From the NCBI GenBank assembly GCA_003250475.1, contig QKGI01000048.1, positions 196 to 64,195 on the forward strand: DNA of 64,000 nucleotides, read 5' to 3'. Shown piece after piece: positions 17,330 to 63,053 of this stretch; the stretch's first letter is position 1, and every line of letters begins with the position of its first letter. The notes below the pieces were generated by a model. The model did not search any database and was not told where the DNA came from. It was given only the letters and a program-made list of their open reading frames with translations. The translations under genes were made by a program, and so were the position numbers. The DNA is from Bacteroidota bacterium. GTDB lineage: Bacteria > Bacteroidota > Bacteroidia > Bacteroidales > VadinHA17.

Positions 17330-18532
17330 ATGAAATACTTTCTAATGGCTTTGGCACTGGCAGTTGTATCATGTACTCCGGGGGAGGAGAAGATCAGTCA
17401 GAAGGCCGGGCATCTACACAGGGATATGCTCACTGTCGACACACACTGTGACACTCCCATGCGGCTATTGAGAAGCAATTACGACCTGGGTGTGTATAAT
17501 GACAAGGGATGTGTCGATTTCCCAAGGATGAAGGAGGGAGGTCTCGATGCGGAGTTCTTCGCCATCTTTATAGGACAGGGCCCGAGAACAGCCGAGGCAT
17601 TTGAGAAGGAATACCGCAGGACCCTGGCCTCTTTTGATTCTGTCAGGAAAAGTGTCGGGCAATACCCTGAGCTGGCTGACATTGCACTGTCGCCTGATGA
17701 TGCATACAAGCTGAAGGACCAGGGCAAACTTGCCATCTTCATCGGCATTGAGAACGGATACCCTGTTGGCACTGACATCTCGAAAGTAAAAGAGTTTTAT
17801 GACCTTGGTGCCAGGTACATCACCCTGTGCCATTCATCAAACAACGACATATGCGATTCATCAACCGACAAGTCCGGACCGGAACATAACGGACTATCTG
17901 CCTTTGGTGAGGAGGTGGTGAAGGAGATGAACAGTATAGGAATGATAATAGATGTATCACACATATCTGACGATTCTTTCTATGATGTAGTGGCTCTCTC
18001 AAAGGCTCCTGTTGTAGCCTCTCATTCATCATGCCGGGCGCTTTGCGAAAGCCCGCGCAATCTTGATGATGAGATGCTGCAGGCCCTGAAAAAAAATGGC
18101 GGGGTGATACAGATATGTATCCTCAGCGATTACCTGAAACAGCCTGAACCCAACCCTGAGTTTGATGCCAGGGCACAGGAACTGCGTGAGAAGTGGCAGG
18201 CCATGGGTCCGGAACTGACAGAAGCACAGCAGGAGCAGCGCTGGAGCGAATATTCTGAACTGAAAAAGCAATATATCAAGCTGGCTACCGTGGCCGATGC
18301 CGTCAATCATATACAGCATGTTGTCGATGTCATAGGCATTGACTACGTAGGCATTGGTTCAGACTTTGACGGCGGAGGAGGCATTGAAGGATGCACTGAT
18401 GTCTCAATGATGAAGAACATAACAAAGGAACTTCTCCGTCGCGGCTACAGCCGTGAGGATATTACGAAGATATGGGGAGGCAACTTCATGCGGGTGATGC
18501 GTGAAGTACAGGCTCTGAGGGATGAAGTCTGA
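17330..18532 (+). CDS. membrane dipeptidase (peptidase family M19) lipoprotein
   Basis: Lipobox (LALAVVSC), then HCDTP, CHSSNNDI, DVSHISD, ASHSS...PRNLDDE and GIGSDFDG motifs of renal-type dipeptidases. Confidence 0.85.
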   Translation: MKYFLMALALAVVSCTPGEEKISQKAGHLHRDMLTVDTHCDTPMRLLRSNYDLGVYNDKGCVDFPRMKEGGLDAEFFAIFIGQGPRTAEAFEKEYRRTLASFDSVRKSVGQYPELADIALSPDDAYKLKDQGKLAIFIGIENGYPVGTDISKVKEFYDLGARYITLCHSSNNDICDSSTDKSGPEHNGLSAFGEEVVKEMNSIGMIIDVSHISDDSFYDVVALSKAPVVASHSSCRALCESPRNLDDEMLQALKKNGGVIQICILSDYLKQPEPNPEFDARAQELREKWQAMGPELTEAQQEQRWSEYSELKKQYIKLATVADAVNHIQHVVDVIGIDYVGIGSDFDGGGGIEGCTDVSMMKNITKELLRRGYSREDITKIWGGNFMRVMREVQALRDEV

Positions 18533-18710
18533 AGGTCTGAAGGTCTGAGGTCTGAAGGTCAGTCGCTTTGCTCGGTCTTGCAGTCTTGCAGTCATGCAGT
18601 CATGTCGGAATGCAGCGGAGATCATAGACCCTGAGGTCAGGACAATCCGGCTCCTACACTATAACGACCCATCCGCCCAACTGGCGGAGCGGACCGGTCT
18701 GAAGGTCAGG
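18524..18710 (+). repeat. mosaic octamer-array intergenic element, copy 1
   Basis: 5 GAAGGTCT-type units overlapping the TGA stop at 18530. Then GTCGCTTTGCTCG, 4 GTC(T/A)TGCA units, a conserved tail with the TCCGCC/GGCGGA hairpin, and a terminal GGTCTGAAGGTCAG identical to 18549-18562. Confidence 0.85.
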
Positions 18711-18751
18711 CTTTTATGACCGTTGGAAAATATTGTGGCCGGTGGCGGCTG

Positions 18752-19843
18752 CTACTCCTGCCTGGATTTCACCCTTGAAAACCTCAACGACTTGATCATC
18801 CAGGTGGGAAGAGGTTTGTTCGGGTCACGTTTGCGCAGATCGAGATACCATCCCAGCTTCTTGATTATAGGCACCTTGTGGGTCTCCACGAACTCAATAA
18901 GAGTACCGTCGGGGTCCTCTATGTATGCGAAGTGACCTGCTGCCTCGCCCATGTCAAAACTGTTACCCTCGTGGCTTTGCTGGCTGTCTACAGTGAACGG
19001 GAACCCCGCCTCTTCGCAGTATTTGCGCAGGTTATCCATGCCTCTTATGTCATAACATAGGTGAATGAAACCCGGATCACCCCACAACCGGCCTTCAAAG
19101 ATCTTGTTTACCTCCCTGTCTTTTGCCTCTATCAGCTCAATTACGCTCTGTCCGAAAACAGGGTTGAATCCACCATGGAAAGGCCTTGCCGGCGCTAACA
19201 GAACGCGCCTGAAGATACCCTTACCTCCGGGAACAGGGGCCAGATCTTCAAATGTACCTGTGACATCATATACTATCCTGTCATATCCCAGGATACCGGA
19301 ATATATATTCAGCGCCCTGTCAATATCAGTGACACCTATCACTCCTCCATATGATCCTCCGGATATTTTCTTCAGGTTCATGAACCAGTCGGTGGCACCT
19401 ACAATATGGAAGATGTTCCCGAAGGGGTCTCTCAGGAAGAAACTCTTTTTCCCTGCCGGATCATCTACCGGTTTCCCCAGGACTTCCACACCATTGTCGG
19501 TCCAGTATTGCCATGCGTTTTCCACATCCTTCACCTTGATCTTGCAGGCAAAGATACCCAGGTCGCCCAGCATGGTCTCATAAGCGGGATATTTAGGTTT
19601 TCTCTCCTTGTACTGCCATACCTCAAATCCGCCGCCGCTCTGGAGGTTCATAGCCAGTACGGCATGCCTGCTCCGCGGCTCACCACCCGTGTAAGGCAGC
19701 ATAAGCCTTGCCTCAGCGACCTCTTCAAATATGCGGCAATCCATCCCGAACGCCCTGATATACCACTCCCATGCTTCACTGAGGTCATTCACCCCTACAC
19801 CCATCTGCTGTATGCCGCTGATTACGTATCCCTTGTTCTTCAT
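18752..19843 (-). CDS. VOC (glyoxalase/bleomycin-resistance/dioxygenase) family protein, multi-domain
   Basis: Repeated beta-alpha-beta-beta-beta VOC modules (GIQQMGVGVNDL, GVIGVTDIDRAL, IHLCYDIRGMD, FAYIEDPDGTLIEF). Confidence 0.7.
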   Translation of the reverse strand: MKNKGYVISGIQQMGVGVNDLSEAWEWYIRAFGMDCRIFEEVAEARLMLPYTGGEPRSRHAVLAMNLQSGGGFEVWQYKERKPKYPAYETMLGDLGIFACKIKVKDVENAWQYWTDNGVEVLGKPVDDPAGKKSFFLRDPFGNIFHIVGATDWFMNLKKISGGSYGGVIGVTDIDRALNIYSGILGYDRIVYDVTGTFEDLAPVPGGKGIFRRVLLAPARPFHGGFNPVFGQSVIELIEAKDREVNKIFEGRLWGDPGFIHLCYDIRGMDNLRKYCEEAGFPFTVDSQQSHEGNSFDMGEAAGHFAYIEDPDGTLIEFVETHKVPIIKKLGWYLDLRKRDPNKPLPTWMIKSLRFSRVKSRQE

Positions 19844-19852
19844 TTAGTTAAA

Positions 19853-20653
19853 CTACATTGGTTTGATCCTGCCGGCTATCCTGAAGAACAGTGCCGGCAA
19901 ATATTTCCTGATTTTAAGCATCAGCAGCTCCTTGCTGCCGACAAGTATCTCTATCTTTCTTTTCTGCAGGCCCCGTATTATCTGCCGGGCAGCTTTTTCC
20001 GGCGACACACCGCCGGCCTGCCCCTCATCCATCCTGCGATGTTCGACCCCGGTGGCGGTAAGGGCGTGATATGAGATCATTGTCCTTACTCTTCCGGGAA
20101 TGATCACCGAGACCCTGATATTATCCTTTCTATGTTCCAGGAGCAGTGTTTCGAAGAAACCATGCAACGCCTGTTTTGATGCGGAGTACGCTGACCGGAG
20201 CGGGAATCCGAAACGCCCTGAGATTGAGCTGGTAGCTGCCACGTGGCCTCCTCCTGCTGTTATCATATACGGCAACACGGCTTTTGTCAGTGCAATGGTG
20301 CCAAAGTAGTTGATCTCCATTATCTTCCGGTCAAGCCAGAGAGGAGTGTCACTTATCATTGCTCTCTGGCTTACCCCACCAATGTTTAACAGCATGTCTA
20401 TCCGGCCCTCCCTGCTGATAACTTCTGCAACCAGTGTATCAATGCCGTCTGTTTCGCCAAGGTCAAAGGGCAGGGGGGTTACGCTCCCTTTCATGCCGGA
20501 GCATTCGTTGACAACTGTGAGGAGCCCGTCGTTGTCATTTGCTGATGCGATCACCCTGCTTCCTTCGCGTACGAAGGTTCTGACCAGTTCCCGGCCGATA
20601 CCCGATGATGCACCTGTGATCCAGACAACCCTGTCTGTAAAAATATTATCCAT
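19853..20653 (-). CDS. SDR family oxidoreductase
   Basis: TGASSGIG cofactor motif, NIGG, catalytic YSASK. Confidence 0.85.
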   Translation of the reverse strand: MDNIFTDRVVWITGASSGIGRELVRTFVREGSRVIASANDNDGLLTVVNECSGMKGSVTPLPFDLGETDGIDTLVAEVISREGRIDMLLNIGGVSQRAMISDTPLWLDRKIMEINYFGTIALTKAVLPYMITAGGGHVAATSSISGRFGFPLRSAYSASKQALHGFFETLLLEHRKDNIRVSVIIPGRVRTMISYHALTATGVEHRRMDEGQAGGVSPEKAARQIIRGLQKRKIEILVGSKELLMLKIRKYLPALFFRIAGRIKPM

Positions 20654-20655
20654 GG

Positions 20656-21984
20656 TCAGAGGGCGGCAATACGTTTTATGAGGTTATTGTATGTGTCACG
20701 AAGCCTGGCAAACACCGGATTTTTTGTACGGATGAGATTCCATATCCTGAACCCTCCTGTGGTCCTTCGAAAGAGCAGAAACCAGTTCCAGGCCATGATA
20801 CCGAGTACGGGTATCATCAGAAAGGCAATGACAGCCAGCCACCATGGCTTGATGAAAATGAGCGACAGCGCCAGGTACAGTGGTCCGAAGATAAAGCTTA
20901 GCCCAAGGAAGAACCCATACCTTGCCGTACTTATGAACGCCGGGTCTTTTGACTTTATCGATTTGATGTATGATACCCGGAATGTAAGTATGTTCAACAA
21001 AGCCCCTAGAAGGAACACAGGCATAACAAGAAGCAGGAACACTGATGAAAGAAGCATCCATACGAAAGGGTGTTTCTTTTTGCGCAGCTGCCGGTAGGTT
21101 ACTTTCAGCTCTGTCGCCATATCCCTGACAGCCAGGGTGTCACTGCATATCCTGCTATAGGCTGCCGGGTCAGCGGTATGAAGGTCATTCATTTTGCTAA
21201 CCAGCCTCTGGTCCCTGAAAAGTTTGGGATACTTGATACTGTCGCTGTATTTCTCATTGACAATGTTCCTCAGCTCATTGATGGCTTCATAGTCCTCCTC
21301 CTCATCAATATGGACCATGACCTTTTTCATTTCTGCCGATAGACGGTCTCTAAGCTCAATAATCGCCCTTGTGGGATTTTCCCGGAATGAGTCATAATAT
21401 TCCGAAACATGGATAGGATGTCCATAAACCACAGTCAGCACCTGCCTGAAACGCCAGTAATGAGAATATTCAAGCCCGACGGGCACAATATTTATTTCCT
21501 TGTTGAATCCCGAGGCCTCTGCTGTCTGGAAAGCTATCCTGCAGATACCCTTCTTCAACTGTCTCAGTTTTCTGTATGTGGCATGATTACCTTCAGGAAG
21601 TATAACTACTCCGTTACGATTTTCCATGACCCTGAGAGTATCACGGAATGTGTCATCATTCTGTTTCAGGTTCTCATACCCGTCCCTGATCCTGTATACC
21701 GGCAGTATTTTGAGGAAGTAAAGTATCCGGGCAATGAACTTCTTTTTGAAGATATCGGCCCTGGCGAGGAAGACAAGCTGCCTGTCAAGGGTACCGATAA
21801 CGGCCATTGCATCCATAAGGGCGTTCTGGTGGTTGGGTGCAAGAATCGTCGGCACCGAAAAATCAAGATTGTCTTTGCCGTAAGCCAGAACCTTACGATA
21901 GAAAATATAATTATGCCAGAAATCGACATATTTCTTCAGAAGCTGATAGAAAATATCATACTTCTCAATGTTCTTCTTACCCAT
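20656..21984 (-). CDS. glycerolipid acyltransferase family protein (PlsC/GPAT-like) with C-terminal membrane domain
   Basis: HxxxxD block (NHQNALMD), FLARADIF, PVYRIRDG and ILPEGNH blocks. Three to four C-terminal TM helices. Confidence 0.7.
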   Translation of the reverse strand: MGKKNIEKYDIFYQLLKKYVDFWHNYIFYRKVLAYGKDNLDFSVPTILAPNHQNALMDAMAVIGTLDRQLVFLARADIFKKKFIARILYFLKILPVYRIRDGYENLKQNDDTFRDTLRVMENRNGVVILPEGNHATYRKLRQLKKGICRIAFQTAEASGFNKEINIVPVGLEYSHYWRFRQVLTVVYGHPIHVSEYYDSFRENPTRAIIELRDRLSAEMKKVMVHIDEEEDYEAINELRNIVNEKYSDSIKYPKLFRDQRLVSKMNDLHTADPAAYSRICSDTLAVRDMATELKVTYRQLRKKKHPFVWMLLSSVFLLLVMPVFLLGALLNILTFRVSYIKSIKSKDPAFISTARYGFFLGLSFIFGPLYLALSLIFIKPWWLAVIAFLMIPVLGIMAWNWFLLFRRTTGGFRIWNLIRTKNPVFARLRDTYNNLIKRIAAL

Positions 21985-22150
21985 TCCGTAACCAGGTTTA
22001 CCTTCTGTATCTTAAATAATGAAAGCCCCCAGGCTTAACCGACGACTAAATTAGAAAAAGATTCCCCTGCTGAATCAAAATTATAATTTGTTAACGGTGG
22101 AAAGGCAGTTTTTAGGTATTTATACCACCATGACGGTGACAGCAAGACAA

Positions 22151-22528
22151 TTACTCAAGGAAATCCTCTATCTCCCTGCGTTCTCTTTTGGTAGGGCGTC
22201 CGCTGCCCCTCGGCCGGTATCCGAATGCCGTTTTACCGGTGATCAGTTTTTGTTTTTCATCCTCGGGGGTCAGGTCTGTGATAAAGTCACTTACCAGTTT
22301 GGCGCTGACCCTGCTCGCAGGCAGACCGGTTACTTTATAGGAATATGTCACAGGTGGCTTTCTTACCAGGATAATTGTTCCCTCGCTGATCATATGAGCC
22401 GGTTTCACCGGTTGTCCTTCCACAATGACCCTTCCTTTGCGGCATGCCTCGGTGGCAGCGCTGCGCGACTTGAATATGCGCACGAACCAGAGGTACTTAT
22501 CCGTTCTTTCGCTATTTACTGCTGTCAT
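22151..22528 (-). CDS. hslR: S4-domain RNA-binding protein (Hsp15/HslR-like)
   Basis: DKYLWFVRIFKSRSAATEACRKGRVIVEGQPVKP S4 motif. Basic C-terminus. 17-nt overlap with pth. Confidence 0.7.
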   Translation of the reverse strand: MTAVNSERTDKYLWFVRIFKSRSAATEACRKGRVIVEGQPVKPAHMISEGTIILVRKPPVTYSYKVTGLPASRVSAKLVSDFITDLTPEDEKQKLITGKTAFGYRPRGSGRPTKRERREIEDFLE

Positions 22529-23105
22529 CGTCCAGGTTTTTGCCTGCCTTGTTATACGCAGTCATGGTAAGCTCGCATCCTGCTGTTCCGAATGACTTTA
22601 TCATTTCCACTGCCAGGGGTAGTCTTTTATTGATGACAGCCATCTCATTTTCCGTCCATTCCCCGAGGACATAGTTTACCTGTCCTCCCCTGGGGTAGTC
22701 ACTCCCTATACCTACCCGAAGGCGTGCATATTCATCAGTGCCGATTATCTCGCTTATGCTCGTGAGGCCGTTATGACCACCTGCTCCTCCCTTGGCCCTC
22801 AGTCTTATGCTGCCTGTGGGTATAGCCAGGTCATCGGTTATCACAAGGAGGTTTTCGACCGGGATCTTCTCCTTCTGCAGCCAGTAGCGCACGGCATTGC
22901 CGCTCCTGTTCATAAAGGTGGACGGTTTGAGAAGGATCAGTTCAGCGTTTTTATAACGCATCGTGGCGATGAATCCGTAACGGCGGTCTGTAAAAGAGAT
23001 ACCGGATGCAGCAGCAGCAGCATCCAGTACCATAAATCCGACGTTATGCCGTGTGTTTTTATACTCGTCGCCTATGTTGCCAAGTCCGGCGATCAGGTAT
23101 TTCAT
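22512..23105 (-). CDS. pth: peptidyl-tRNA hydrolase
   Basis: MKYLIAGLGNIGDEYKNTRHNVGF...GGHNGL motifs. Confidence 0.92.
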   Translation of the reverse strand: MKYLIAGLGNIGDEYKNTRHNVGFMVLDAAAAASGISFTDRRYGFIATMRYKNAELILLKPSTFMNRSGNAVRYWLQKEKIPVENLLVITDDLAIPTGSIRLRAKGGAGGHNGLTSISEIIGTDEYARLRVGIGSDYPRGGQVNYVLGEWTENEMAVINKRLPLAVEMIKSFGTAGCELTMTAYNKAGKNLDDDSSK

Positions 23106-48603: not shown

Positions 48604-49172
48604 ATATCCACCAGCTAGTAGAAAAAACCAGGACCTTCCGGCGGTTTGATGAAAGCCATGCCGTAAGTGAGGATACCCTGGTATCACTTGTTGACCTCGC
48701 CCGTCTCTCAGCCTCGGGCGCTAACCGTCAGCCACTTAAATATATCCTTGTCACTGACCCTGCTGTCAGGGCAGATGTATATCCATGTCTGGCCTGGGCA
48801 GGATACCTGTCCGACTGGCACGGTCCTGACCCCGGTGAGAGGCCTGCCGCTTATATCGTCATCCTGGGTGACCGGGAGATATCCGAATCGTTTGGCGTTG
48901 ACCACGGGATAGCAGCGCAGAGCATCATGCTGGGAGCCACGGAGGCCGGCCTGGGCGGATGCATCATAGCTTCAGTAAAAAAGGAGAAACTACGGGTAGC
49001 ACTGAATATCCCGAAACAGTACGATGTTCTGCTTGTGCTTGCTCTGGGCAAGCCAGTTGAACGGGTTGTTATTGATACCATCAACAATAATGACGTGAAA
49101 TACTGGAGAGATGAAAAGCACGTTCATCATGTTCCCAAGAGGACAATTGCCGAGATCGTTATACGCAGGTAA
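48600..49172 (+). CDS. nitroreductase family protein
   Basis: RRF...S..NRQP and GLGGC motifs. 4-nt overlap with the SOD gene. Confidence 0.8.
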   Translation: MNIHQLVEKTRTFRRFDESHAVSEDTLVSLVDLARLSASGANRQPLKYILVTDPAVRADVYPCLAWAGYLSDWHGPDPGERPAAYIVILGDREISESFGVDHGIAAQSIMLGATEAGLGGCIIASVKKEKLRVALNIPKQYDVLLVLALGKPVERVVIDTINNNDVKYWRDEKHVHHVPKRTIAEIVIRR

Positions 49173-49890
49173 CGCCGGTATTACTCTTCTGTTCCTTTTC
49201 CTCCTTATCGCCTGCAGGCTGCCCGGTGCTTACGCCCAGCAGCATGAGTACCTGCTCTTCCAGGGAGTGGTGTTTGATGCCGACACCAGGCAGCCGATGC
49301 CCGGAGCTCACTACCGCATCAACGGAGTAAGCGGGGGTGCTACTGACAGCAGCGGGATGTTCTCCCTCTACGCAAGCTACCATGATACTATTACTTTCAC
49401 CAGTGTGGGATACAAGCAGTACAGTATGACTGTTGAGGATACCCTCCGGGCAAAGGAATATGTTACAGGAGTCTACCTGAGCAGTGATACCCTGGTGATA
49501 CCGGGTATTGTTGTCATTCCGCGTCTTGGTAATATCAGGGCTGAGATCATGTCGGAACGGCCAGCCGTCAACCAGGAGATGATCAATGCAACCAATAATC
49601 TCAGGCTATCCACATACCAGGGTCTGACAATGAAAGACGACCTTGGTGATCCCGCACTCAACTATGAGCTCCTCAGGCAGAAACAGCGATATGAGGCCTA
49701 TGAAAAAGGCCAGATAGGCTCCGGGCAGATGGTGGCTATCAGCCCGCTGCTTCTTATACCTGTTATTTATACGCTTGCCGCCGGTCCGCCCAAAAAGCCT
49801 GAGCCACCGGTACCATACATATCTGCCAGGGATATGGAGCATATCCGCGCGGCGCATGATTCACTCATCTATCGTAAACCCAGGCGTTGA
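49111..49890 (+). CDS. CarboxypepD_reg-like domain protein (exported)
   Basis: Signal/TM (ITLLFLFLLIAC) followed by GVVFDADTRQPMPGAHYRINGVSGGATDSSGMFSL, a carboxypeptidase-regulatory-like beta-sandwich. Start uncertain: ATG at 49111 overlaps the nitroreductase gene by 62 nt, alternative TTG at 49147. Confidence 0.5.
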   Translation: MKSTFIMFPRGQLPRSLYAGNAGITLLFLFLLIACRLPGAYAQQHEYLLFQGVVFDADTRQPMPGAHYRINGVSGGATDSSGMFSLYASYHDTITFTSVGYKQYSMTVEDTLRAKEYVTGVYLSSDTLVIPGIVVIPRLGNIRAEIMSERPAVNQEMINATNNLRLSTYQGLTMKDDLGDPALNYELLRQKQRYEAYEKGQIGSGQMVAISPLLLIPVIYTLAAGPPKKPEPPVPYISARDMEHIRAAHDSLIYRKPRR

Positions 49891-50120
49891 GGGTCGGAAG
49901 GTCGGAAGGTCGGAAGGTCTTAAGTCTGAAGGTCTCAGGTCGGAAGGTCTGTCGCTGCGCTCGGTCATGCAGTCATGCAGTCATGTCGGAGCGTAGCGGA
50001 GATCCTCGGCCGTGAGGTCGGGACAGTCGTGCGATTGGGACGGTCTTGAGATGAGTTTGCCATCGCTGCAGTCTGGCGCTTTCTCCGCCAGCTGGCGGAT
50101 CAGACCGGTCGGAAGGTCAG
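49888..50120 (+). repeat. mosaic octamer-array intergenic element, copy 2
   Basis: 8 GAAGGTC(G/T)-type units starting in the TGA stop at 49888. Then GTCGCTGCGCTCG, 3 GTCATGCA units, a conserved tail with the perfect 16-nt palindrome TCCGCCAGCTGGCGGA (50084-50099), and a terminal GGTCGGAAGGTC identical to 49938-49949. The stop of the convergent gene (50117-50119) lies in the last unit. Confidence 0.85.
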
Positions 50121-51028
50121 CCTTTGTAGAAGATTGCTTTGATAATATGACTTGCCATCTTCGGGTTCTCCTTCAGTCTGCGTGTTGAGTAGCCAAACCA
50201 CTTCTCACCGAACGGGACGTATACCCTCATCACATGACCTGCATCAACGATGCTCTGGCGCAGCTTGGGCGTTACACCGTAAAGCATCTGGAACTCATAC
50301 ATATCCTTAGGCACATTGTATTTTCTGATCAGCTCGTATGCACCCTCTATCAACGGTCTGTCGTGAGTTGCGATGCCGGCATATATCCTGTTCCTGAACA
50401 TAAACTCCAGGTCTTCCAGATAATGGTCATTGATCTCCTCATACTTTTTATATGCTATCTCGGCCGGCTCAACATAGATACCTTTACACAGCCTGTAATT
50501 GGCAGGTATGTCAGGTGTGTTCATGTCAAGCATATTCTCAAGATCATTGAGTGTCCTCTTCATATAAGCCTGCAGCACCAGCCCGACGTTCTGCGGGAAC
50601 TCGGCATGGAGACGCCGGTAGAGCTCTATCTCCAGATCGGTGCATTTGGAATCCTCCATGTCTATCCTGCAGAAATTGTTGTAGGAGGCAGCTTTGGCCA
50701 CTATTTCCCTCATATGGCTGTAACACCTCTCTTTATCAATCAACAGGCCGAAGCTGGTTGGTTTGAGAGAGTAGTTACCGTTGATACCGTTTTTCTCGGT
50801 TACCTCAATGAGATCAAGGTACTCCTGTTTATTCTCTTCCGCCTCATCAAGTGACTTAATAAATTCACCCAGCACATCCAGGGTGACCTTCATACCCCTG
50901 GAGTTGAGCTCTTTTGACACACGCATGGCATCTTCCATGGTCACGCCTGAGATATATGCACGGGAGAATATCCAGATGAATTTCTTCGGGAAATAGGGAA
51001 GTATTGATGCAATAAACTTGTTGAACAT
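50117..51028 (-). CDS. proline dehydrogenase family protein (monofunctional PutA-type PRODH)
   Basis: TIM-barrel PRODH pattern (VTLDVLGE ... RIDMEDS ... LVLQAY..R ... RLCKGIY ... IATHD ... FQMLYG ... YVPFG ... Y..RRL.ENP). Trimmed to the ATG at 51028. Confidence 0.8.
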   Translation of the reverse strand: MFNKFIASILPYFPKKFIWIFSRAYISGVTMEDAMRVSKELNSRGMKVTLDVLGEFIKSLDEAEENKQEYLDLIEVTEKNGINGNYSLKPTSFGLLIDKERCYSHMREIVAKAASYNNFCRIDMEDSKCTDLEIELYRRLHAEFPQNVGLVLQAYMKRTLNDLENMLDMNTPDIPANYRLCKGIYVEPAEIAYKKYEEINDHYLEDLEFMFRNRIYAGIATHDRPLIEGAYELIRKYNVPKDMYEFQMLYGVTPKLRQSIVDAGHVMRVYVPFGEKWFGYSTRRLKENPKMASHIIKAIFYKG

Positions 51029-51100
51029 GCTTGTACGCTTTATGTTATAGGCGCACAAATATATCAAAAACCTTGATTGATAAAGCAGTCTTGAGTAAAG

Positions 51101-56491: not shown

Positions 56492-57493
56492 TTGCCTGTA
56501 AGAACTAAATATCTGCTTGGCTTGCTTTTATCAGTTTCTGTTTTTGTGCAAGGCCAGGACCCGCAGTTTTCGCAGTTTTACGCCAACCAGCTTTACCTGG
56601 CGCCATCATTTGCCGGGGCAACTGAAGATTACAGGGTATCACTGAACTGGCGCAACCAGTGGCCGTCGATACCGGGAGTCTTTCATACTTACAGCTTCTC
56701 TTTCGACAAAGCCATACCAAACTTCAACTCGGGTATCGGTATCCTGGCCACTTACGATGTAGCCGGTTCAGGTGACCTGAGTACCACCAACATAGGTCTT
56801 CTCTACTCATACGACATTCAGATAAATGATGAATGGCATATAAGGCCCGGGCTGAACTTCAAATTCACATACCTGGGCCTTGATCTTACTAAGCTGATAT
56901 GGAACAGCCAGATCACCACTGGCGGTACGCTGCCTACCATCACACCTCCTCCTTTCGATAATGTCGCCGACATCGACTTCACCACTTCCGGCCTCATTTA
57001 TAACCAGAAGATATGGGCAGGTTTCACTGTAGACCACCTGCTGAGACCACGCACCTCATTCTGGGGTGACGATAACTCTGTCCCGATAAAAGTGGACCTC
57101 TTCGGCGGGTTCCAGATCGTAAGCCGGGGAAGGTTGAAAAAGAAACTTACAGAGGTTCTGTCTGTTGCTGCCAATGTGATGTTCCAGGGCGATTTCTACC
57201 AGTCTGACATCGGCGTCTATTACTTCAAGCACCCGCTGGTGTTCGGGGTCTGGTACAGGGGAATACCCTTCGCATCTACCAGGGACGTGTCTGCACAGGC
57301 AGGTGATGCCATAATAGGAATGATAGGCATAAAAACAGACCAGCTCAATATCGGGTTGAGCTACGATTTCACAATCTCAAACCTGATAACCTCTTCCGGT
57401 GGTGCTTACGAGCTATCGCTTATTTATTCGTTCACCTCCGCACAGATCAAGAGAGGACAGAAAATTCACGCCATTCCCTGCCCCGAATTCTGA
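56492..57493 (+). CDS. type IX secretion system membrane protein PorP/SprF family
   Basis: QDPQFSQFYANQLYLAPSFAG N-terminal signature, beta-barrel pattern, and a C-terminal YELSLIYSF-type motif. TTG start. Confidence 0.8.
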   Translation: MPVRTKYLLGLLLSVSVFVQGQDPQFSQFYANQLYLAPSFAGATEDYRVSLNWRNQWPSIPGVFHTYSFSFDKAIPNFNSGIGILATYDVAGSGDLSTTNIGLLYSYDIQINDEWHIRPGLNFKFTYLGLDLTKLIWNSQITTGGTLPTITPPPFDNVADIDFTTSGLIYNQKIWAGFTVDHLLRPRTSFWGDDNSVPIKVDLFGGFQIVSRGRLKKKLTEVLSVAANVMFQGDFYQSDIGVYYFKHPLVFGVWYRGIPFASTRDVSAQAGDAIIGMIGIKTDQLNIGLSYDFTISNLITSSGGAYELSLIYSFTSAQIKRGQKIHAIPCPEF

Positions 57494-57555
57494 GTCGCGA
57501 CACCCCATCAACAGACTGCACAGCTCATTCTTCTTTTTAATATTTAAAATTTGTG

Positions 57556-57563
57556 TATGTTTG
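57556..57563 (+). promoter_or_regulatory. -7 promoter box (TAtgTTTG)
   Basis: Matches TAnnTTTG, 37 nt upstream of the ATG at 57601. Confidence 0.4.
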
Positions 57564-57600
57564 TGCAACAATTTGTTAAACCATAATCTAAGATTCTGAA

Positions 57601-58203
57601 ATGAATAGATCATCTGTTGTAAAGAACACCCTGATATTATCAGTATTGGCTGTTGCCGGAACACTTTTTATTTCCGGCTGCGGTAAGAATGAGGCCGGCG
57701 CTGTCGTGGAAAAGTCGAACGATGTCAGGACAAGTATCGCTTATGTAGAACTGGATACGGTGATAGCCCGCTTTGACATGGCAAAAGACAAGGCTACCGA
57801 GCTTGAGGAGAAGACCAAAAACTCCGAAGCTGAGCTGACTTCCAAGTCACAGGCTTTTGACCGTGATGTAAGAGACTACCAGAACAAGGTTCAGAAAGGA
57901 CTGATCACCAGGGCCACTGCCGCTGAGATGGAACAGACACTTCAGCAGCAGCAACAGACCTTGCTGGCAAGACGTGATGAGATGGCCTACAATCTGAATG
58001 AGGAGAGTCTTGTTGCCCAGCGTCAGGTACTGGAGTATATCAACCAGTATCTTGCCGAGTTCAATGCTGATCACGGATATGAATATATCCTGGCAAAACA
58101 GTTCCCGGGACCGATACTCTTCAGTGACACCACGCTCGATATTACCGAGGCTGTTGTCGCCGGGCTGAACACAAAATACAACGCTGAGAAGGCTAAGAAA
58201 TAA
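57601..58203 (+). CDS. OmpH family lipoprotein (Skp-like)
   Basis: Lipobox (LFISGC) and a coiled-coil OmpH core (IAYVELDTVIARFDM...). Confidence 0.7.
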   Translation: MNRSSVVKNTLILSVLAVAGTLFISGCGKNEAGAVVEKSNDVRTSIAYVELDTVIARFDMAKDKATELEEKTKNSEAELTSKSQAFDRDVRDYQNKVQKGLITRATAAEMEQTLQQQQQTLLARRDEMAYNLNEESLVAQRQVLEYINQYLAEFNADHGYEYILAKQFPGPILFSDTTLDITEAVVAGLNTKYNAEKAKK

Positions 58204-58206
58204 GCT

Positions 58207-58623
58207 TTACTCTCCGGAAGACCTGCGGGCCCGCTTTTCGGCGGGCTTTGCTGTTTTTGATACCTTGCGCTCACGTCTTATCTTGCGCTCCTCCTCCGGG
58301 GTTACTATAATAAACAGATCCTCATCCGGCTTCTTCATCCGGTACTGTTCCCGGGCATACCTCTCCAGATTCTCATCACTGGTCCTCAGAGCGTTTAGTT
58401 TCCTGCGATCCTCATCAATACGCTCCATGTAGTACTCTTTCTCACGATTAAGCCTGTTACGGGTCCGGATCTCCCTGACACGCGAGATGAGATTGTTGGG
58501 ATCAAGAAGGACAATCCATATAACAAAGACCAGTATGGTTAGAACATACTTGTTCTTCATCCATGATGGCATACTGTCACGCAGGCCTGCCAGTGAAAAC
58601 CGCTGCCAGAAATCCGGTTTCAA
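58207..58623 (-). CDS. septum formation initiator family protein (FtsB/DivIC-like)
   Basis: N-terminal TM (YVLTILVFVIWIVLLD) followed by a coiled coil and the ...YAREQYRMKKPDEDLFIIV motif. TTG start at 58623, alternative ATG at 58572. Confidence 0.65.
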   Translation of the reverse strand: MKPDFWQRFSLAGLRDSMPSWMKNKYVLTILVFVIWIVLLDPNNLISRVREIRTRNRLNREKEYYMERIDEDRRKLNALRTSDENLERYAREQYRMKKPDEDLFIIVTPEEERKIRRERKVSKTAKPAEKRARRSSGE

Positions 58624-58654
58624 AAGTTATAGTTCTTTTTAGTTGTTAATTTTT

Positions 58655-58858
58655 TCATCCACCGCTCATCAGGTAGATCACCTGTACATTGTCACCATCA
58701 CGTATCACCTCCCCGCTGTAACTGTTACGGTCAACAATCCTTCCGTTAATCTTTACCGTCCTCATCCTGAAGGTGTACCGCTTTACCTCAAGTAACTTTT
58801 CAACGGTAATGCTTTCACCGTCAAGGGTCACCGGCTCATTATTAAGAGTTATCTTCAT
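58655..58858 (-). CDS. ThiS/MoaD family sulfur-carrier protein (67 aa, C-terminal GG)
   Basis: MKITLNNEPVTL...VIYLMSGG, a beta-grasp length protein with a terminal Gly-Gly. Trimmed to the ATG at 58858. Confidence 0.7.
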   Translation of the reverse strand: MKITLNNEPVTLDGESITVEKLLEVKRYTFRMRTVKINGRIVDRNSYSGEVIRDGDNVQVIYLMSGG

Positions 58859-58891
58859 TCCTCTGCTATTCTCCTGCTGGTATACGAATGG

Positions 58892-58899
58892 CAAATATA
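58892..58899 (-). promoter_or_regulatory. -7 promoter box (TAtaTTTG) for the ThiS/MoaD-like gene
   Basis: Reverse complement reads TATATTTGCC, 33 nt upstream of the ATG at 58858. Confidence 0.45.
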
Positions 58900-59025
58900 A
58901 CGACAAACAGCGGGATTTGCATTTGTCGAATGGCAATCTTCTGCATATTGACTATTATCATTAGAATGTGGATATTTATGCACGTTATTTGTAAATACCA
59001 TATAAAACAACTCACAAAAACTACC

Positions 59026-61179
59026 ATGGATTTAAACGAAATCAAGGCGAAGCACAAGCTTGTCAACAGATGGGACTACAACTGGACCCCTCTGGATAAG
59101 GGTTATACCGACAAGACTCTTTATATAAACGTCGGTTCGGGGGAGGTTAAGGAAAAGGATGTACCGCCGGAGATGAAAGAGAAATTCATCGGGGGGAAAG
59201 GGTATGGGCTCAGGTATCTTTGGGATGCTACCAAACCTGATACCAGATGGGATGACCCGGAGAATGAGATAGTCATCTCTTCAGGTCCGATAGGGGGTAT
59301 CACCCAGTATTCAGGCTCCGGGAAGTCTCTTGTCGTCACCATCTCGCCCCAGACAGACTCTGTCATAGACAGTAATGTGGGAGGTTTCTTCGGTCCCTTC
59401 CTGAAGTTCTCCGGCTTTGATGCCATCGAGCTACAGGGTAAAGCGGCCAATGATGTTATCATTTACATAAACGGCATAGATCACTACGTTGAGATCTTCG
59501 AGGCTCCTGCGGAGGCCCTCGACAGTCATGTGCTGGCTGAGCAGCTGACAGACATGTTCATTGAGAACGATTCGGAGCGGAAGAACATAGGTATTGTCTC
59601 AACGGGTTCTGCTGCCGATCATTCCCTCATAGGCATGCTCAATTTCACCTTTTACGATTCAAAGCGTAAGAAGATAAGGATGAAACAGGCAGGGCGGGGC
59701 GGTATAGGCACTGTCTTCCGCAATAAGAAGATAAAGGCTATTGTGTGTAAAATACCTGGTGTAAAGGGAAATCTCAATAACGTTGTCGACCTGGAGCCCA
59801 TCCAGGAAAGGGGTCGTCGTTTCAACCGTGAGATGCGCGAGCTTGACGACAAGCAGTGCAAGATGCGCCAGATCGGTACTGCCCACCTGATGGAGATAAT
59901 GGATGACCACGATCTTTTGCCTACCCATAATTACAAGTTCGGATCACACAAAGACTCACCCAGGATTGATTCCGGGGTCTGGAAGTCTTTCTTCACCCAG
60001 AACATACCTGACGGCTGCTGGATCGGATGTAATATGGCGTGTGCCAAGGCAATTGACGACTTCGTGATAAGTACCGGCCCCTATAAAGGGCAGAAGGTAA
60101 TAGTTGACGGGCCTGAATATGAGACAGCAGCAGGGCTTGGCTCCAATGGCGGCTTCTTCGATCCGCGATATATAATTGAGACCAACTTCTATTGTGACAC
60201 ATACGGTATCTGTACCATCACCTGGGGAACCAGCCTGGCATTCATGCAGGAGTGCTATGAGAACGGCATCCTCAATAAGGAACGTACAGGCGGACTCGAG
60301 CTTACTTTCGGTAACATACCTGCCGCACTCGAACTGCTGCACATGGTGTCACGGGGTGAAGGATTCGGGCTGATAGCAGGACAGGGTATACGCCGCATGA
60401 AGAAGATCTTTGCGGAGAAGGGTTGGGGTGACCCTCAGTTCATGCAGGATATCGGGATGGAAAACAAGGGTCTCGAGTATTCTCAGTACATGTCCAAGGA
60501 GTCGCTGGCTCAGCAGGGCGGGTATGCGCTCACCAACAAAGGCCCGCAGCATGATGAGGCATGGCTAATATTTATGGATATGGTCAACAACCAGATACCT
60601 ACATTTGAGAACAAAGCCGAAGCTCTTCATTACTTCCCGATGTTCCGTACATGGTTCGGTCTGGTGGGACTCTGCAAGCTGCCGTGGAACGATGTCGAAC
60701 CTGAAAATAATGCCGAAACCGACGAACCGGCTAAGGTGCCCGAGCATGTTGACAACTATGTTACCATTTACACGGCTGTCACCGGGAGGCCTTTCGATAA
60801 ACACAGGCTTGTAGAGGACTCTGAACGCGTCTATAACTTCCAGAGGGTATTTAACATACGCCGCGGTTACGGACGCCGTAAGGATGATGACCAGCCATAT
60901 CGTGCATGCGGACCGGTTACACCGGAAGAATACCTGTCCCGGGAGGAGCGTTATGACAAGCAGCTGAAGGAGAAAGTAGGCGTTGATCCCGAGGGAAAAA
61001 GCACTGAAGAAAAGATACGCATCATGAGACAGTATCGTGAAAAACAGTACGACCTTCTTCGTGATGCCGTATACCTGCGGCGCGGATGGAATAACAATGG
61101 TATCCCCACCATTGAACACCTGAAAAGGATCGGAATGGATCTGCCCGAGGTGATAGAGGTGGTAAGACCGCTTCAGTAA
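59026..61179 (+). CDS. aldehyde:ferredoxin oxidoreductase family protein (tungsto/molybdo-pyranopterin, [4Fe-4S])
   Basis: AOR N-terminal domain (KEKFIGGKGYGLRYLW), Cys cluster DGCWIGCNMAC, pterin-binding blocks (DGPEYETAAGLGSN, FYCDTYGICTI). 717 aa from the ATG at 59026, about 100 aa longer than classical AORs. Confidence 0.85.
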   Translation: MDLNEIKAKHKLVNRWDYNWTPLDKGYTDKTLYINVGSGEVKEKDVPPEMKEKFIGGKGYGLRYLWDATKPDTRWDDPENEIVISSGPIGGITQYSGSGKSLVVTISPQTDSVIDSNVGGFFGPFLKFSGFDAIELQGKAANDVIIYINGIDHYVEIFEAPAEALDSHVLAEQLTDMFIENDSERKNIGIVSTGSAADHSLIGMLNFTFYDSKRKKIRMKQAGRGGIGTVFRNKKIKAIVCKIPGVKGNLNNVVDLEPIQERGRRFNREMRELDDKQCKMRQIGTAHLMEIMDDHDLLPTHNYKFGSHKDSPRIDSGVWKSFFTQNIPDGCWIGCNMACAKAIDDFVISTGPYKGQKVIVDGPEYETAAGLGSNGGFFDPRYIIETNFYCDTYGICTITWGTSLAFMQECYENGILNKERTGGLELTFGNIPAALELLHMVSRGEGFGLIAGQGIRRMKKIFAEKGWGDPQFMQDIGMENKGLEYSQYMSKESLAQQGGYALTNKGPQHDEAWLIFMDMVNNQIPTFENKAEALHYFPMFRTWFGLVGLCKLPWNDVEPENNAETDEPAKVPEHVDNYVTIYTAVTGRPFDKHRLVEDSERVYNFQRVFNIRRGYGRRKDDDQPYRACGPVTPEEYLSREERYDKQLKEKVGVDPEGKSTEEKIRIMRQYREKQYDLLRDAVYLRRGWNNNGIPTIEHLKRIGMDLPEVIEVVRPLQ

Positions 61180-61207
61180 TCACACCTGAAGAAATACACC
61201 GGGAAGG

Positions 61208-61233
61208 GGCTGTCACCGCATAAGGGGACAGCC
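61208..61233. terminator. hairpin in the convergent spacer between the AOR and KamA-like genes
   Basis: GGCTGTC(a)CC ... GG(g)GACAGCC stem followed by a T-rich tract on the plus strand. Confidence 0.45.
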
Positions 61234-61240
61234 TGCTTCT

Positions 61241-62791
61241 TTATTTCCCGCTGAACTTTGACTTGCTGAAGGCAATATCAATCTGTTTTGCAGCGTCAAC
61301 GGGGTTGGTGAGAGGCATGTCGGCACTGAACAGCTCATAGTCGAGCAGCCTTGCCTTTTTGCTTCTCTCAAATGTCGGAAGCTTGGTACGGTTGGTAGTC
61401 TCCACATGGTTTCCCTGACTGTCGACGATTATCAGCTTCGGCAGAAAAACACCCTTCCTCCCGATAAACTCATCCATGATCTTCACCGAGTTGTCAAACT
61501 CTTTCCTTGTAGCTCTGCCAAGTGCCTCATACTTCACTATCCGTTTGTGATCCCATGTCATGACATTGGCAAAGCTCTCTGAGATCTTATCGTCTATATT
61601 CTTTTCGAGGTTCAGGGTGTCATGTCCTGACGGCATCAGCAGCACTTTTCCCCCGCCACCCTCTATGTTGGCTGCATAGCGGGGCACCGTGATACCGCTT
61701 ATCCAACCCTGAAGGTGTTTCATGTATATCTTGCCCACCTGTATGGGAGTGATGAAATGCACTATACCCTTCTCTTTGTGGCACTGCAACAGGTAATAGG
61801 GATGAACACCTATCCAGAACATACGCCGGAATGTCTCGGCAAGGGTCCGGTAATGATCATTGACATGGTTCAGCAGCACAGTCTGGTTGCGGATTGTGAA
61901 ACCATGCATGGTGATCTTCTTTACTGCAGCTGCCATATCAGCTGTCACCTCCTGGTAATGATTTATATGGGTCATGAAATATACATACTTATCAATCCCC
62001 TTGTTGTACCTGTTGGATGAGGCCCTGATCATCTCAAGCAGGTCATCGGTGATGAGCATTGGAAGTACCACCGGCACCCTCGTGGCTATTCTGATGACCC
62101 TGAGGTGGGGTATGCGGCTCAGCTCCTCAAGTATATATCTGAGCCTCCCGAAGCTTATCATCAGGGCGTCACCCCCTGTTACAAGCACCTCGTTTATGTT
62201 TTTGTTGTACCCGATATAGAAGAGTCCTTTATCCACCTCGTGGCTGTTGACATCAGCCGTGGTGTCAAGCGACTTGGCGCGCTGACAATGTACGCAGTAG
62301 GAGGCACAGCTTGTATTCTCAGCGACAAAGAGCGCCAGCCTGTTGGGATAACGCTGGTAAGCTGCGCCGTAACTTCGTGACCCCTCACTCATGGCCCCCT
62401 CAACGCCTGCGTTCGGAAACATCAGGTTGGCCGGGGTAGGCACACTCTGCCAGAATATCGGATCAAGGCGTTTTTTCGATACCTCACCGAAAAACACGGG
62501 ATTGAATGGATCTTCCTGCATCAGTGATGCATAATAGGGACTGATCCGGAAGGGCTCTTTACCCTCCTGCCGTAGTGTACCGATAGTCCTCCTGATCTCT
62601 TTCTCCTGGTGATCATTTAGTTTTATCACCCTCTTCAGCTGGTCAACGGATCGTATGGAGTTTTTCCTCTGCCACGCCGGATCGTTCCATTGCTCTGAGG
62701 TCACATCTTTCCACAACTCGATCGTGTTGTACTTCCGCGGATAGTATAAAAAGTCATCGTTATAGTCCATAGGCATCTCATTGTTTTGCAT
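61241..62791 (-). CDS. KamA family radical SAM aminomutase-like protein
   Basis: CASYCVHCQR CxxxCxxC cluster motif, VTGGDAL, PYYLLQC and GGGGK motifs of lysine 2,3-aminomutase relatives. ~100-aa C-terminal extension. Confidence 0.85.
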   Translation of the reverse strand: MQNNEMPMDYNDDFLYYPRKYNTIELWKDVTSEQWNDPAWQRKNSIRSVDQLKRVIKLNDHQEKEIRRTIGTLRQEGKEPFRISPYYASLMQEDPFNPVFFGEVSKKRLDPIFWQSVPTPANLMFPNAGVEGAMSEGSRSYGAAYQRYPNRLALFVAENTSCASYCVHCQRAKSLDTTADVNSHEVDKGLFYIGYNKNINEVLVTGGDALMISFGRLRYILEELSRIPHLRVIRIATRVPVVLPMLITDDLLEMIRASSNRYNKGIDKYVYFMTHINHYQEVTADMAAAVKKITMHGFTIRNQTVLLNHVNDHYRTLAETFRRMFWIGVHPYYLLQCHKEKGIVHFITPIQVGKIYMKHLQGWISGITVPRYAANIEGGGGKVLLMPSGHDTLNLEKNIDDKISESFANVMTWDHKRIVKYEALGRATRKEFDNSVKIMDEFIGRKGVFLPKLIIVDSQGNHVETTNRTKLPTFERSKKARLLDYELFSADMPLTNPVDAAKQIDIAFSKSKFSGK

Positions 62792-62822
62792 CGAGAGAAC
62801 CGGTATTCCACACCTTAATCTG

Positions 62823-62830
62823 CAAATATA
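62823..62830 (-). promoter_or_regulatory. -7 promoter box (TAtaTTTG) for the KamA-like gene
   Basis: Reverse complement reads TATATTTGCAG, 31 nt upstream of the ATG at 62791. Confidence 0.45.
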
Positions 62831-62855
62831 ACAATTTTTTGGAAGCCTTGTCTGA

Positions 62856-63053
62856 CGACCTCAAGACCCTCCCGACCGCAAGACTGCAAGACTGCAAGAC
62901 CGCAAGCCTGCAAGACCGCAAGACTGCAAGACCGCATGACTGCAAGACTGCATGACCGCAAGACGGCATGACTGCACGACTGTCCCGACCTCAGACCTTC
63001 AGACTTCAGACCTTCAGACCTCAGACCTTCAGACTTCAGACCTTCAGACCTCA
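62856..63053 (-). repeat. mosaic octamer-array intergenic element, copy 3 (inverted relative to copies 1 and 2)
   Basis: Read on the minus strand from the TGA stop (63051-63053): 8 GGTCTGA(A)-type units forming an exact 30-nt tandem duplication (62991-63020 = 63021-63050). Then GAGGTCGGGACAGTCGTGC and 13 strictly phased GTC(T/A)TGC(A/G)-type octamers (62878-62981), then GGTCGGGAGGGTCTTGAGGTCG. Confidence 0.9.

Follow-up and report, generated by a model that had tools for sequence, protein, structure and literature searches.

Mosaic octamer arrays downstream of stop codons in uncultured Bacteroidales as members of the class of long simple sequence repeats

Tandem arrays of heptamer and octamer units were first described in 1990 and are a long-standing puzzle of bacterial genomes. 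This report concerns a mosaic of 8-nt tandem arrays, built from the units GAAGGTCK and GTCWTGCR, that recurs in three intergenic spacers of a Bacteroidota genome (Bacteroidales, VadinHA17; assembly GCA_003250475.1, contig QKGI01000048.1, positions 196 to 64,195). This stretch of 64,000 nucleotides is called the window. The oldest example of such arrays is reportedly that of Mazel et al. in 1990, the short tandemly repeated repetitive (STRR) heptamers of heterocystous cyanobacteria, such as CCCCAGT, TTGGTCA and CAACAGT. These are said to form dispersed tandem arrays of few unit types, with around 100 or more intergenic copies per genome. The mosaic is no STRR in this narrow sense, since STRR are heptamers of other sequence in another phylum, and the hosts here are Bacteroidota by type IX secretion system (T9SS) genes and record labels.

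The wider class is that of long simple sequence repeats (LSSR), defined by Mrazek, Guo & Shah 2007. As summarised in PMC4679880, LSSR have units of 5-11 nt, with heptamers the commonest, and polymerase slippage was proposed as their origin. To the extent of that summary, the arrays described here are like LSSR in being short-unit tandem arrays above chance, mostly non-coding and sporadic across phyla. They are unlike the LSSR summarised there in that 8-nt units are as common as 7-nt units, and in that the mosaics combine several kinds of unit and non-repeat modules. Uncultured Bacteroidales, again as far as the summary goes, lie outside the 2007 survey.

Rehm et al. 2015 (PMC4692102) described G-rich heptamer arrays, GGGAATC in Xanthomonas and GGGGAYT in Nostoc, with, on average, 28 nt between array and 5' neighbour and 160 nt between array and downstream open reading frame (ORF). 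The G-rich strand is the coding strand, 0-50 nt from the stop codon or overlapping it. Some arrays form inverted pairs between convergent genes, and sites are kept in related species while length and sequence differ (PMC4692102). The present arrays share the stop-codon placement on the sense strand, the convergent inverted pairs and the kept sites with changing content, but they are octamers, and several arrays are combined with linker and hairpin modules in one composite. Families with 6-8-nt units are known from Burkholderia, Chloroflexus and Mesorhizobium (Subirana & Messeguer 2019, PMC6749651). MacGregor 2015 (PMC4679880) reported TAACTGA heptamer arrays in Beggiatoaceae, Cyanobacteria and five Bacteroidetes; Gramella, Aequorivita and Elizabethkingia have spacers that combine them with arrays of further heptamers. 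TAACTGA arrays are often found at contig ends, and close relatives are without them at the same site (PMC4679880). The unit is a different one, and in the Beggiatoaceae genome that was studied (BOGUAY) most arrays immediately precede a start codon, whereas those described here run from stop codons.

Two other kinds of modular spacer element invite comparison. BOX elements of Streptococcus pneumoniae (Firmicutes) are non-coding, dispersed in spacers, and made up of a head, variable tandem middle units and a tail; the boxB unit is about 45 nt long, and BOX as a whole adopts a stable fold. The modular layout is similar, but BOX has no sequence in common with the mosaic. Repetitive extragenic palindromic (REP) sequences and bacterial interspersed mosaic elements (BIME) are likewise mosaic intergenic elements of 3' untranslated regions (UTRs), often between convergent genes. 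However, REP units are imperfect palindromes of 20-40 nt linked to a Y1 transposase (REP-associated tyrosine transposase, RAYT), whereas the mosaic consists of non-palindromic 8-nt direct repeats, contains a single 10-nt palindrome only, and gives RNA without significant structure; no RAYT gene was found in the 64-kb window. By analogy, REP/BIME might still be the nearest model for how the mosaic could work. Newbury in 1987, and Liang, Rudd and Deutscher in 2015, reportedly found that REP/BIME stabilise upstream mRNA and that REPs at most 15 nt from a stop codon affect translation.

The layout, spread and placement set out below make the mosaic an octamer member of the LSSR class. A preliminary description had taken it to be new in kind; arrays of this kind, with intergenic 7-8-nt units, are already described (LSSR, PMC4679880; Rehm 2015, PMC4692102; MacGregor 2015). 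The literal A and B unit strings (defined below) had no match in a literature search.

Three mosaics in one window

The same mosaic occupies spacers at 18524-18710 (+), 49888-50120 (+) and 62856-63053 (-), here copies 1, 2 and 3 (Table 1). Read 5' to 3', it consists of a GAAGGTCK array (A) with occasional 7-nt units, a linker, and a GTCWTGCR array (B); as RNA, the units are (GAAGGUCU)n and (GUCUUGCR)n. Copies 1 and 2 also have a common non-repeat tail after the arrays. In all three copies the TGA of the preceding gene sits within the first A unit. Tandem Repeats Finder assigns period 8 to all six arrays, so the shared modular layout of the preliminary description holds at all three loci. Copy 3 has superperiods in addition, of 30 nt in A (perfect) and 32 nt in B.

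The repeats are far above chance. In the window, a two-unit A pattern has 7 matches against 0.16 expected from shuffles, and a two-unit B pattern 17 against 0.92; both are about 20-40 times above shuffles and restricted to the three loci. The string GGTCKGARGGTC occurs 16 times (1.19 expected), with 14 of the 16 inside the loci. The linker GTCGCTnnGCTCG is found at 18562 in copy 1 and at 49951 in copy 2, and the 19-mer GAGGTCGGGACAGTCGTGC, which is displaced in copy 2, matches letter for letter at 50014-50032 (+) and 62974-62992 (-). Outside the arrays, the tails of copies 1 and 2 give an alignment z-score of 13 relative to shuffles, with identity blocks of 35/44 and 37/43. Linker, displaced 19-mer and conserved tail had all been noticed at the outset, together with GTC at a fixed phase in every module. 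This last point stands in part: GTC is enriched about 4-6-fold in the three loci and mostly spaced at 8 nt, but 7-nt units and linkers break the frame (spacings 4+13 and 5+32), identically in copies 1 and 2. In both, the spacing runs 8, 4, 13, 8, 8 and then 5, 32, with one extra B unit between in copy 1.

The mosaic is neither a gene nor a structured RNA nor an element moved by a transposase. Rfam 15 gave 0 matches to known RNA families at gathering score in the window; in E-value mode, two chance-level C/D-box small nucleolar RNA matches reached 14-15 bits, against gathering scores of 40-54. A structured RNA was rejected because the loci fold no better than dinucleotide shuffles on either strand (z = -0.16, +1.05, -1.90, -0.80, +0.98 and +3.01). 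Other species also have the hairpin module GGAGATCC(C)GACC-GGAA-GGTCGGGA, and no compensatory changes were found in its stem of 8 predicted pairs. An intrinsic terminator was rejected as well, with a hairpin plus T run at 0 sites in each of the three spacers; the TCCGCC/GGCGGA hairpins are without a T run. A role as terminator or structured RNA, which had been suggested earlier, is thus not borne out in the three loci.

Other identities fare no better. As first reported, the mosaic is real, non-coding and dispersed, and distinct from REP/BIME, from miniature inverted-repeat transposable elements (MITEs) and from clustered regularly interspaced short palindromic repeats (CRISPR). No terminal inverted repeats were found in the three loci, and no transposase, integrase or reverse transcriptase among the 36 window ORFs scanned or in the annotated syntenic locus L119 (L numbers are our handles for related stretches). 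A CRISPR array was rejected since the units are contiguous 8-mers without spacers, and a phage origin since the B-array is found in 3 viral contigs only, in two of them at contig ends. The G-quadruplex property of the arrays of Rehm 2015 is also missing: unit A has just GG and unit B no G run, and without G3-4 tracts neither unit forms a canonical G-quadruplex.

Spread, placement and turnover

Arrays of at least 2.75 B units, scanned for in one genome per species, gave at least 118 stretches (L001-L118), and 103 of the 118 listed come from metagenome-assembled genomes (MAGs) labelled Bacteroidales, Rikenellaceae or other Bacteroidota. GTCWTGCR arrays are therefore present in more than 100 uncultured Bacteroidales/Bacteroidota species genomes. 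A scan of metagenome contigs for about three A units gave at least 120 stretches; these span 38-71% G+C, which places A-type arrays in several phyla. Both units are thus common to many species and are additions to the known repertoire.

The units of the window are not the only ones. In the 738 kb around the B matches of the 103 Bacteroidota-labelled species genomes, 140 arrays have period 7 and 199 have period 8, against at most 26 for any other period. More than 1 kb from an ascertained B match, period 7 accounts for 58 arrays and period 8 for 36, and no other period for more than 4. These 94 arrays comprise 74 distinct units, and only 10 are B-like. The density away from ascertained matches is about 17 arrays per 100 kb, an abundance that is new for this large and almost wholly uncultured part of Bacteroidales. 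The same period 7/8 pattern appears around A matches in metagenomes, over 38-71% G+C. Arrays in the related loci are mostly intergenic (82% of 346, in about 16% of the DNA). Given the peak at periods 7 and 8, the many units and the intergenic bias, the mosaic of the window can be seen as a local dialect of a general genome feature. The properties of LSSR are all present: head-to-tail 8-nt units beyond chance, a non-coding position, and many arrays per genome with a modal unit of about 7 nt.

Placement relative to stop codons was counted at 220 other loci, for arrays within 15 nt of a stop codon. These arrays lie on the sense strand of the gene far more often than on the antisense strand (25 v 7 for A, 18 v 4 for B), in agreement with the 3'-UTR position first proposed. 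They begin 0-5 nt past the stop codon, and junctions with B read, for example, ...TAGgtcttgc or ...TGAggtcttgc. Stop-abutting arrays of other units follow the same rule, with G>C on the sense strand in 40/41 arrays with nonzero skew (p = 4e-11), and in 26/33 skewed arrays of the metagenome loci. The sense placement is not an artefact of ORF calling, because the forward B unit lacks stop triplets and the reverse has one only in the GTCATGCR variant. A "three-frame stop cassette" was considered and rejected: sense stop triplets number 62 against 26 antisense, yet composition predicts 65.5 +/- 5.3.

The bias depends on distance to the stop codon. All B-arrays taken together are randomly oriented to the flanking genes (++ 20, +- 26, -+ 13, -- 21). 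Convergent spacers are somewhat enriched for B-arrays (33% v 20%). In counts over whole spacers, arrays between convergent genes are G-rich toward the sense strand of each gene (30:7 and 5:23). Between co-directional genes, the arrays by the upstream stop tend to be G-rich (54:31) and those by the downstream start C-rich (36:15); divergent spacers showed no polarity rule. Inverted pairs of same-unit arrays have the G-rich array first and the C-rich second in 25 cases against 3, in co-directional and convergent spacers alike. Such pairs form long imperfect octamer palindromes, for example (GGAAGGTC)n ... (GACCTTCC)n and (GGGACTGT)n(GGTCTGAA)n ... (ACAGTCCC)n.

The sense RNA is more stably folded than its complement in 118/149 arrays (p = 4e-13), since G can pair with both C and U. 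For the three window copies the energies (kcal/mol, sense v complement) are -64.8 v -53.1, -98.5 v -63.5 and -63.8 v -26.7. The placement described by Rehm 2015, with the G-rich strand as coding strand 0-50 nt from or overlapping the stop, is that of the window copies and of the related arrays. Arrays thus survive only in spacers, from the stop codon of the upstream gene, with the G-rich/C-poor strand in the mRNA. This extends a published rule to dozens of unrelated units and adds a systematic asymmetry of RNA folding. As the orientation rule is independent of the unit, it also makes the question of whether such arrays are a mutational weed or a 3'-end signal experimentally tractable.

Orthologous sites in relatives (Table 1) show that presence and orientation of the arrays persist, and that what they contain changes much more quickly than the genes on either side. 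The mosaic itself is dispensable, as relatives have spacers of 26 nt and 84 nt at the same sites, which removes any necessity of the mosaic at these places. Unit counts differ between relatives. Within a strain, independently assembled contigs agree letter for letter over the spacer, in one case 4 contigs (L119-122) and in another 6 (L124-126, L128-130). At site 2, the L255 contig ends 16 nt upstream of the array and the L254 contig inside the upstream gene.

Modules appear to have been exchanged between loci. The tail hairpin of copy 2 is closer to copy 1 (37/43) than to its L254 orthologue (about 32/42, by hand count), and the 19-mer stands in differing module contexts in copies 2 and 3, which suggests exchange via shared units. 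The interior modules are flanked by direct A units, and even the "empty" L257 site is A-like. Non-repeat modules that seem to travel between arrays are an addition to what is known of the class. On metagenome contig L131 (about 4560-4660), a B-array is followed by AGCGGAGATCCCGAAC and runs directly into an (GGAAGGTC)n array. There the 3' arm of the hairpin module equals a G-type A unit, which hints at how modules derive from one another.

Other arrays were met in passing. Octamer arrays of the GTCATGCG/GTCTTGCG type occur singly in unrelated phyla, in Streptomyces (L028, L053, L066, L116), in Sodalis and Biostraticola (L002, L087) and in Paraburkholderia (L008). In L008 an CCGGTCTT array turns into an GCGGTCTT array, a variant unit expanded beside its parent. 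Related MAGs contain sister arrays of G-quadruplex or telomere-like type (AGGGGTTT with an inverted partner, AGGGACA, ACGGGGT), placed on the sense strand immediately past stop codons. A further small module, TTTG-NN-ARCCGTAGC-N4-GCGAAGGYT-NN-C, lies inside B-arrays of three different MAGs; its outer stem covaries (CAGCC/GGCTG, CAACC/GGTTG, AAGCC/GGCTT), and it resembles the small dispersed repeats within cyanobacterial heptamer arrays. Many contigs end in or beside an array (L255, L254, L005, L064, L139, L144, L152, L166). Arrays break short-read assemblies, so that their abundance in MAGs is probably underestimated. For practical purposes this fragmentation matters, as does the fact that gene callers can err at 3' ends.

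Origin of the arrays and competing explanations

We think it rather probable that the mosaics are octamer arrays of the LSSR/STRR class that arose by slippage and spread by recombination. They would be tolerated only in spacers, and only where the G-rich, C-poor strand, which pairs with itself, becomes part of the 3' UTR of the preceding gene. Judging from the comparisons between loci, slipped-strand mispairing and unequal recombination would create arrays and alter their length. Units that have undergone a point change or lost one base would expand into adjacent sub-arrays, and this may account for both the mosaic and the common GTC core. Since identical units are present at many loci, recombination or gene conversion could carry interior modules (linker, hairpin module, tail) along, and exchange between loci might yield dispersed "copies" without any transposase. 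Orientation would be set by a filter at the RNA level. The sense RNA would pair with itself through G-U pairs and be a poor substrate for Rho, while the complementary C/A-rich RNA would be unstructured and similar to a Rho loading site; a tail of this kind might draw Rho and 3' exonucleases. The role of the arrays would then be a longer 3' UTR and, at most, a weak REP/BIME-like protection or insulation of the 3' end of the upstream mRNA.

Several observations weigh against this explanation. More than 100 species genomes have one and the same B unit, the hairpin module of about 40 nt is conserved between species (L040, L003, L131), and arrays are found at all three orthologous sites even at 70-75% nucleotide identity. 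The spacer is not hypervariable on short time scales, as the 4 and 6 identical independent contigs show. A shared B unit, a conserved hairpin module, persisting arrays and a strong orientation rule would also be expected under functional selection. The preference for 7-8-nt units is beyond what slippage alone explains, and the polymerase-footprint idea of unit length, which PMC4679880 cites from Mrazek 2007, is conjectural. That gene conversion took place is what we infer from the similarity of the loci. Finally, unit B is nearly without G/C skew (its sense strand is G+T-rich, 5/8 bases) and obeys the orientation rule all the same; being almost unskewed, it fits the Rho-avoidance rationale less well.

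Functional selection could act through a protein. The arrays might be selected 3'-UTR cis-elements, multivalent platforms of 7-8-nt sites for a putative single-strand RNA-binding protein (cold-shock/OB-fold, S1, RRM or KH) that sets stability or translation of the upstream mRNA. The start of arrays 0-5 nt after stops on the sense strand is consistent with this, as are a period that stays constant while the unit varies, and a B unit and hairpin module common to many species. S1, Csp and CsrA have been proposed for TAACTGA arrays (MacGregor 2015, PMC4679880). However, 74 units in 94 arrays are hardly all readable by one protein, B-arrays overall are unbiased toward flanking genes (++ 20, -- 21), and the arrays are dispensable at orthologous sites. 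Furthermore, canonical terminators stand before the array in 9 cases and after it in 10 among the related loci, so that many arrays may not be co-transcribed with the gene. We consider this platform unlikely, though it is the alternative to be taken most seriously.

Hairpin-plus-U terminators are rare in Bacteroidales, at 10-16% of 3' ends of the related loci by a crude scan. A broader proposal is that stop-anchored, sense-oriented 7-8-nt arrays could be a general and sequence-degenerate 3'-end-forming signal. It would be read by Rho or another periodic RNA binder with opposite effects on sense and antisense transcripts, and the A/B mosaic with its hairpin module would be its commonest dialect. 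Rho of this phylum has a large lineage-specific insertion. We offer this as a speculation and regard it as doubtful.

Rho could also act in a direction-dependent way, with the arrays as putative insulators: the C-rich antisense RNA would load Rho and halt convergent or antisense transcription, while the G-rich sense RNA would pass. Nearly all stop-abutting arrays are richer in C than in G on the antisense strand, the antisense RNA of copy 3 is less structured than shuffles (z = +3.0), convergent spacers are over-represented, and inverted same-unit pairs run from G-rich to C-rich. Termination by other means is also plausible in these genomes. Among 482 gene 3' ends of the related loci (the 103 Bacteroidota loci among L001-L118), a hairpin plus T run, by a simple and crude rule, is found at 12% of array-bearing and 10-16% of array-free ends, and this rarity suggests that other modes of termination dominate. 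The counts also show no excess of such terminators at arrays. Against an insulator, unit B has about as much C as G on both strands and few antisense YC dimers, and still obeys the rule; most convergent spacers of the window are 3-105 nt long and array-free; and a loading site abutting the stop would terminate transcription inside the very gene to be protected. Rho insulation in this form seems improbable to us.

A role at the level of DNA is harder still to support. The arrays would be recombination hot spots, tracts for nucleoid proteins, or non-B DNA, in G-quadruplex or cruciform form, with a part in organising or rearranging the chromosome. Some sister arrays are G-quadruplex motifs (AGGGACA, AGGGGTTT, ACGGGGT) comparable to those of Rehm 2015, mirror pairs could extrude cruciforms, the superperiods of 30 and 32 nt are close to three helical turns, and contigs break at arrays. 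Units A and B have no G3 tracts, however, and synteny is conserved around all three sites. A rule set by the stop codon and the strand of the gene is hard to explain on DNA, and Rehm 2015 (PMC4692102) found gene order at array sites to be stabler than at controls. We judge such a role to be quite improbable.

Two further explanations can be treated briefly. A MITE-like non-autonomous element, mobilised in trans by a transposase or recombinase whose gene lies at some other place in the genome, would fit the non-repeat modules and both ends shared by copies 1 and 2 and the almost empty site 2 of L257/258, but it was rejected and is very improbable, as terminal inverted repeats are absent and neither a clean empty site nor a target-site duplication is seen (L257/258 keeps A-like units), the copies differ in whole modules and not in point changes, no transposase was found in the window or the syntenic loci, and the exact tail motif had 0 matches in metagenome contigs. 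Contingency loci, in which a change of unit number switches expression of a neighbour (phase variation), would agree with unit lengths that are not multiples of three and with unit counts that vary among related strains, but are just as hard to credit for arrays that lie past stop codons, neither in reading frames nor between promoter elements, next to housekeeping genes (dipeptidase, proline dehydrogenase, radical-SAM enzyme), with spacers that do not differ among the 4 independent contigs of one strain or the 6 of another.

Feature coordinates and gene context

Table 1. Modules of the three window copies (window positions; TRF, Tandem Repeats Finder), their orthologous sites (with identity to the window; aa, amino acid; nt, nucleotide), and other arrays of related loci.
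Feature	Location	Strand	Content or comment
Copy 1 A-array	18524-18560	+	GAAGTCT GAAGGTCT GAAGGTCT GAGGTCT GAAGGTC; M19 dipeptidase stop TGA 18530-18532 inside; TRF 18523-18560, 5.0 copies
Copy 1 linker	18562-18574	+	GTCGCTTTGCTCG
Copy 1 B-array	18575-18604	+	GTCTTGCA x2, GTCATGCA, GTCATG; TRF 18575-18601, 3.4 copies
Copy 1 degenerate hairpin module	18604-18647	+	GTCGGAATGCAGCGGAGATC...GAGGTCAGGACA; 35/44 identical to copy 2 module
Copy 1 tail	18672-18709	+	Hairpin TCCGCC-CAACT-GGCGGA, then GACCGGTCTGAAGGTCAG; convergent glyoxalase-fold gene end at 18752
Copy 2 A-array	49888-49950	+	Mainly G-type units (GGAAGGTC); begins with TGA 49888-49890 of CarbopepD_reg-domain gene; TRF 49892-49949, 7.5 copies
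Copy 2 linker	49951-49963	+	GTCGCTGCGCTCG
Copy 2 B-array	49964-49987	+	GTCATGCA x2, GTCATG; TRF 49964-49985, 2.8 copies
Copy 2 hairpin module	49985-50032	+	GTCGGAGCGTAGCGGAGATCCTCGGCC-GTGA-GGTCGGGACA and B-like unit GTCGTGC; 50014-50032 is the 19-mer common with copy 3
Copy 2 tail	50084-50120	+	Hairpin TCCGCC-AGCT-GGCGGA, then GACCGGTCGGAAGGTCAG; proline dehydrogenase stop 50117-50119 (-) in last unit
Copy 3 A-array	62987-63053	-	8- and 7-nt units alternating; begins with TGA 63053-63051 of PQQ/BamB-like beta-propeller gene; TRF 62987-63051, 8.6 copies
Copy 3 19-mer	62974-62992	-	GAGGTCGGGACAGTCGTGC at A/B junction; equals 3' half of copy 2 hairpin module
Copy 3 B-array	62874-62982	-	13.6 GTCWTGCR units (TRF 62874-62982, 13.6 copies), 32-nt superperiod
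Copy 3 degenerate trailing units	62856-62873	-	GGTCGGGAGGGTCTTGAGGTCG
Site 1 (dipeptidase/glyoxalase)	L123		94% aa; same modules, other unit counts, extra 3' units
Site 1	L119-122		93% aa; 7 A units, without linker, B-array and hairpin module
Site 1	L124-130		85% aa; 84-nt spacer of degenerate A-like units
Site 1	L062		75% nt; CAGTMGG x5, then about 14 B units
Site 2	L254/255		96% aa; T-type, not G-type, A units; no linker; degenerate tail
Site 2	L256		91% aa; 68 nt
Site 2	L257/258		90% aa; the two stop codons are separated by 26 nt, made up of three degenerate A-like units
Site 3	L102		A, then B, then other arrays
Forward then reverse same-unit arrays	L139, L145, L155, L168, L175, L199, L214 and others
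G-quadruplex-type or telomere-like sister arrays	L099 5593-5682; L101 571; L111 653; L077 4766		In related MAGs
TTTG-NN-ARCCGTAGC module	L018 ~1751	-
TTTG-NN-ARCCGTAGC module	L023 ~1996	+
TTTG-NN-ARCCGTAGC module	L036 ~2101	+

The window is ordinary Bacteroidota chromosome, with T9SS PorP/SprF, Por secretion tail, BamA, OmpH, GldD and housekeeping enzymes. The genes upstream of the three copies encode an M19 dipeptidase (17255-18532, +), a CarbopepD_reg-domain protein (49111-49890, +) and a PQQ/BamB-like beta-propeller (63051-63986, -). Copies 1 and 2 occupy convergent spacers and copy 3 lies between co-directional genes; the remaining convergent spacers of the window (3-105 nt) are array-free. 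A link to replication was rejected, as GC skew in the window just tracks gene orientation.

Two minor observations concern the neighbouring genes. The longest ORFs at 17255-18532 (+) and 50117-51067 (-) start too early: database homologues of the dipeptidase have about 400 aa (ORF 425) and those of the proline dehydrogenase 303 aa (ORF 316). Just after copy 3, the sequence TTGTTATATTTGCAG at 62825-62854 (-), 34 nt upstream of a radical-SAM/lysine-aminomutase-like gene, is promoter-like and was flagged by a sigma-70 scan; it contains TAnnTTTG, which we take to be a Bacteroidota promoter motif of the -7 type.

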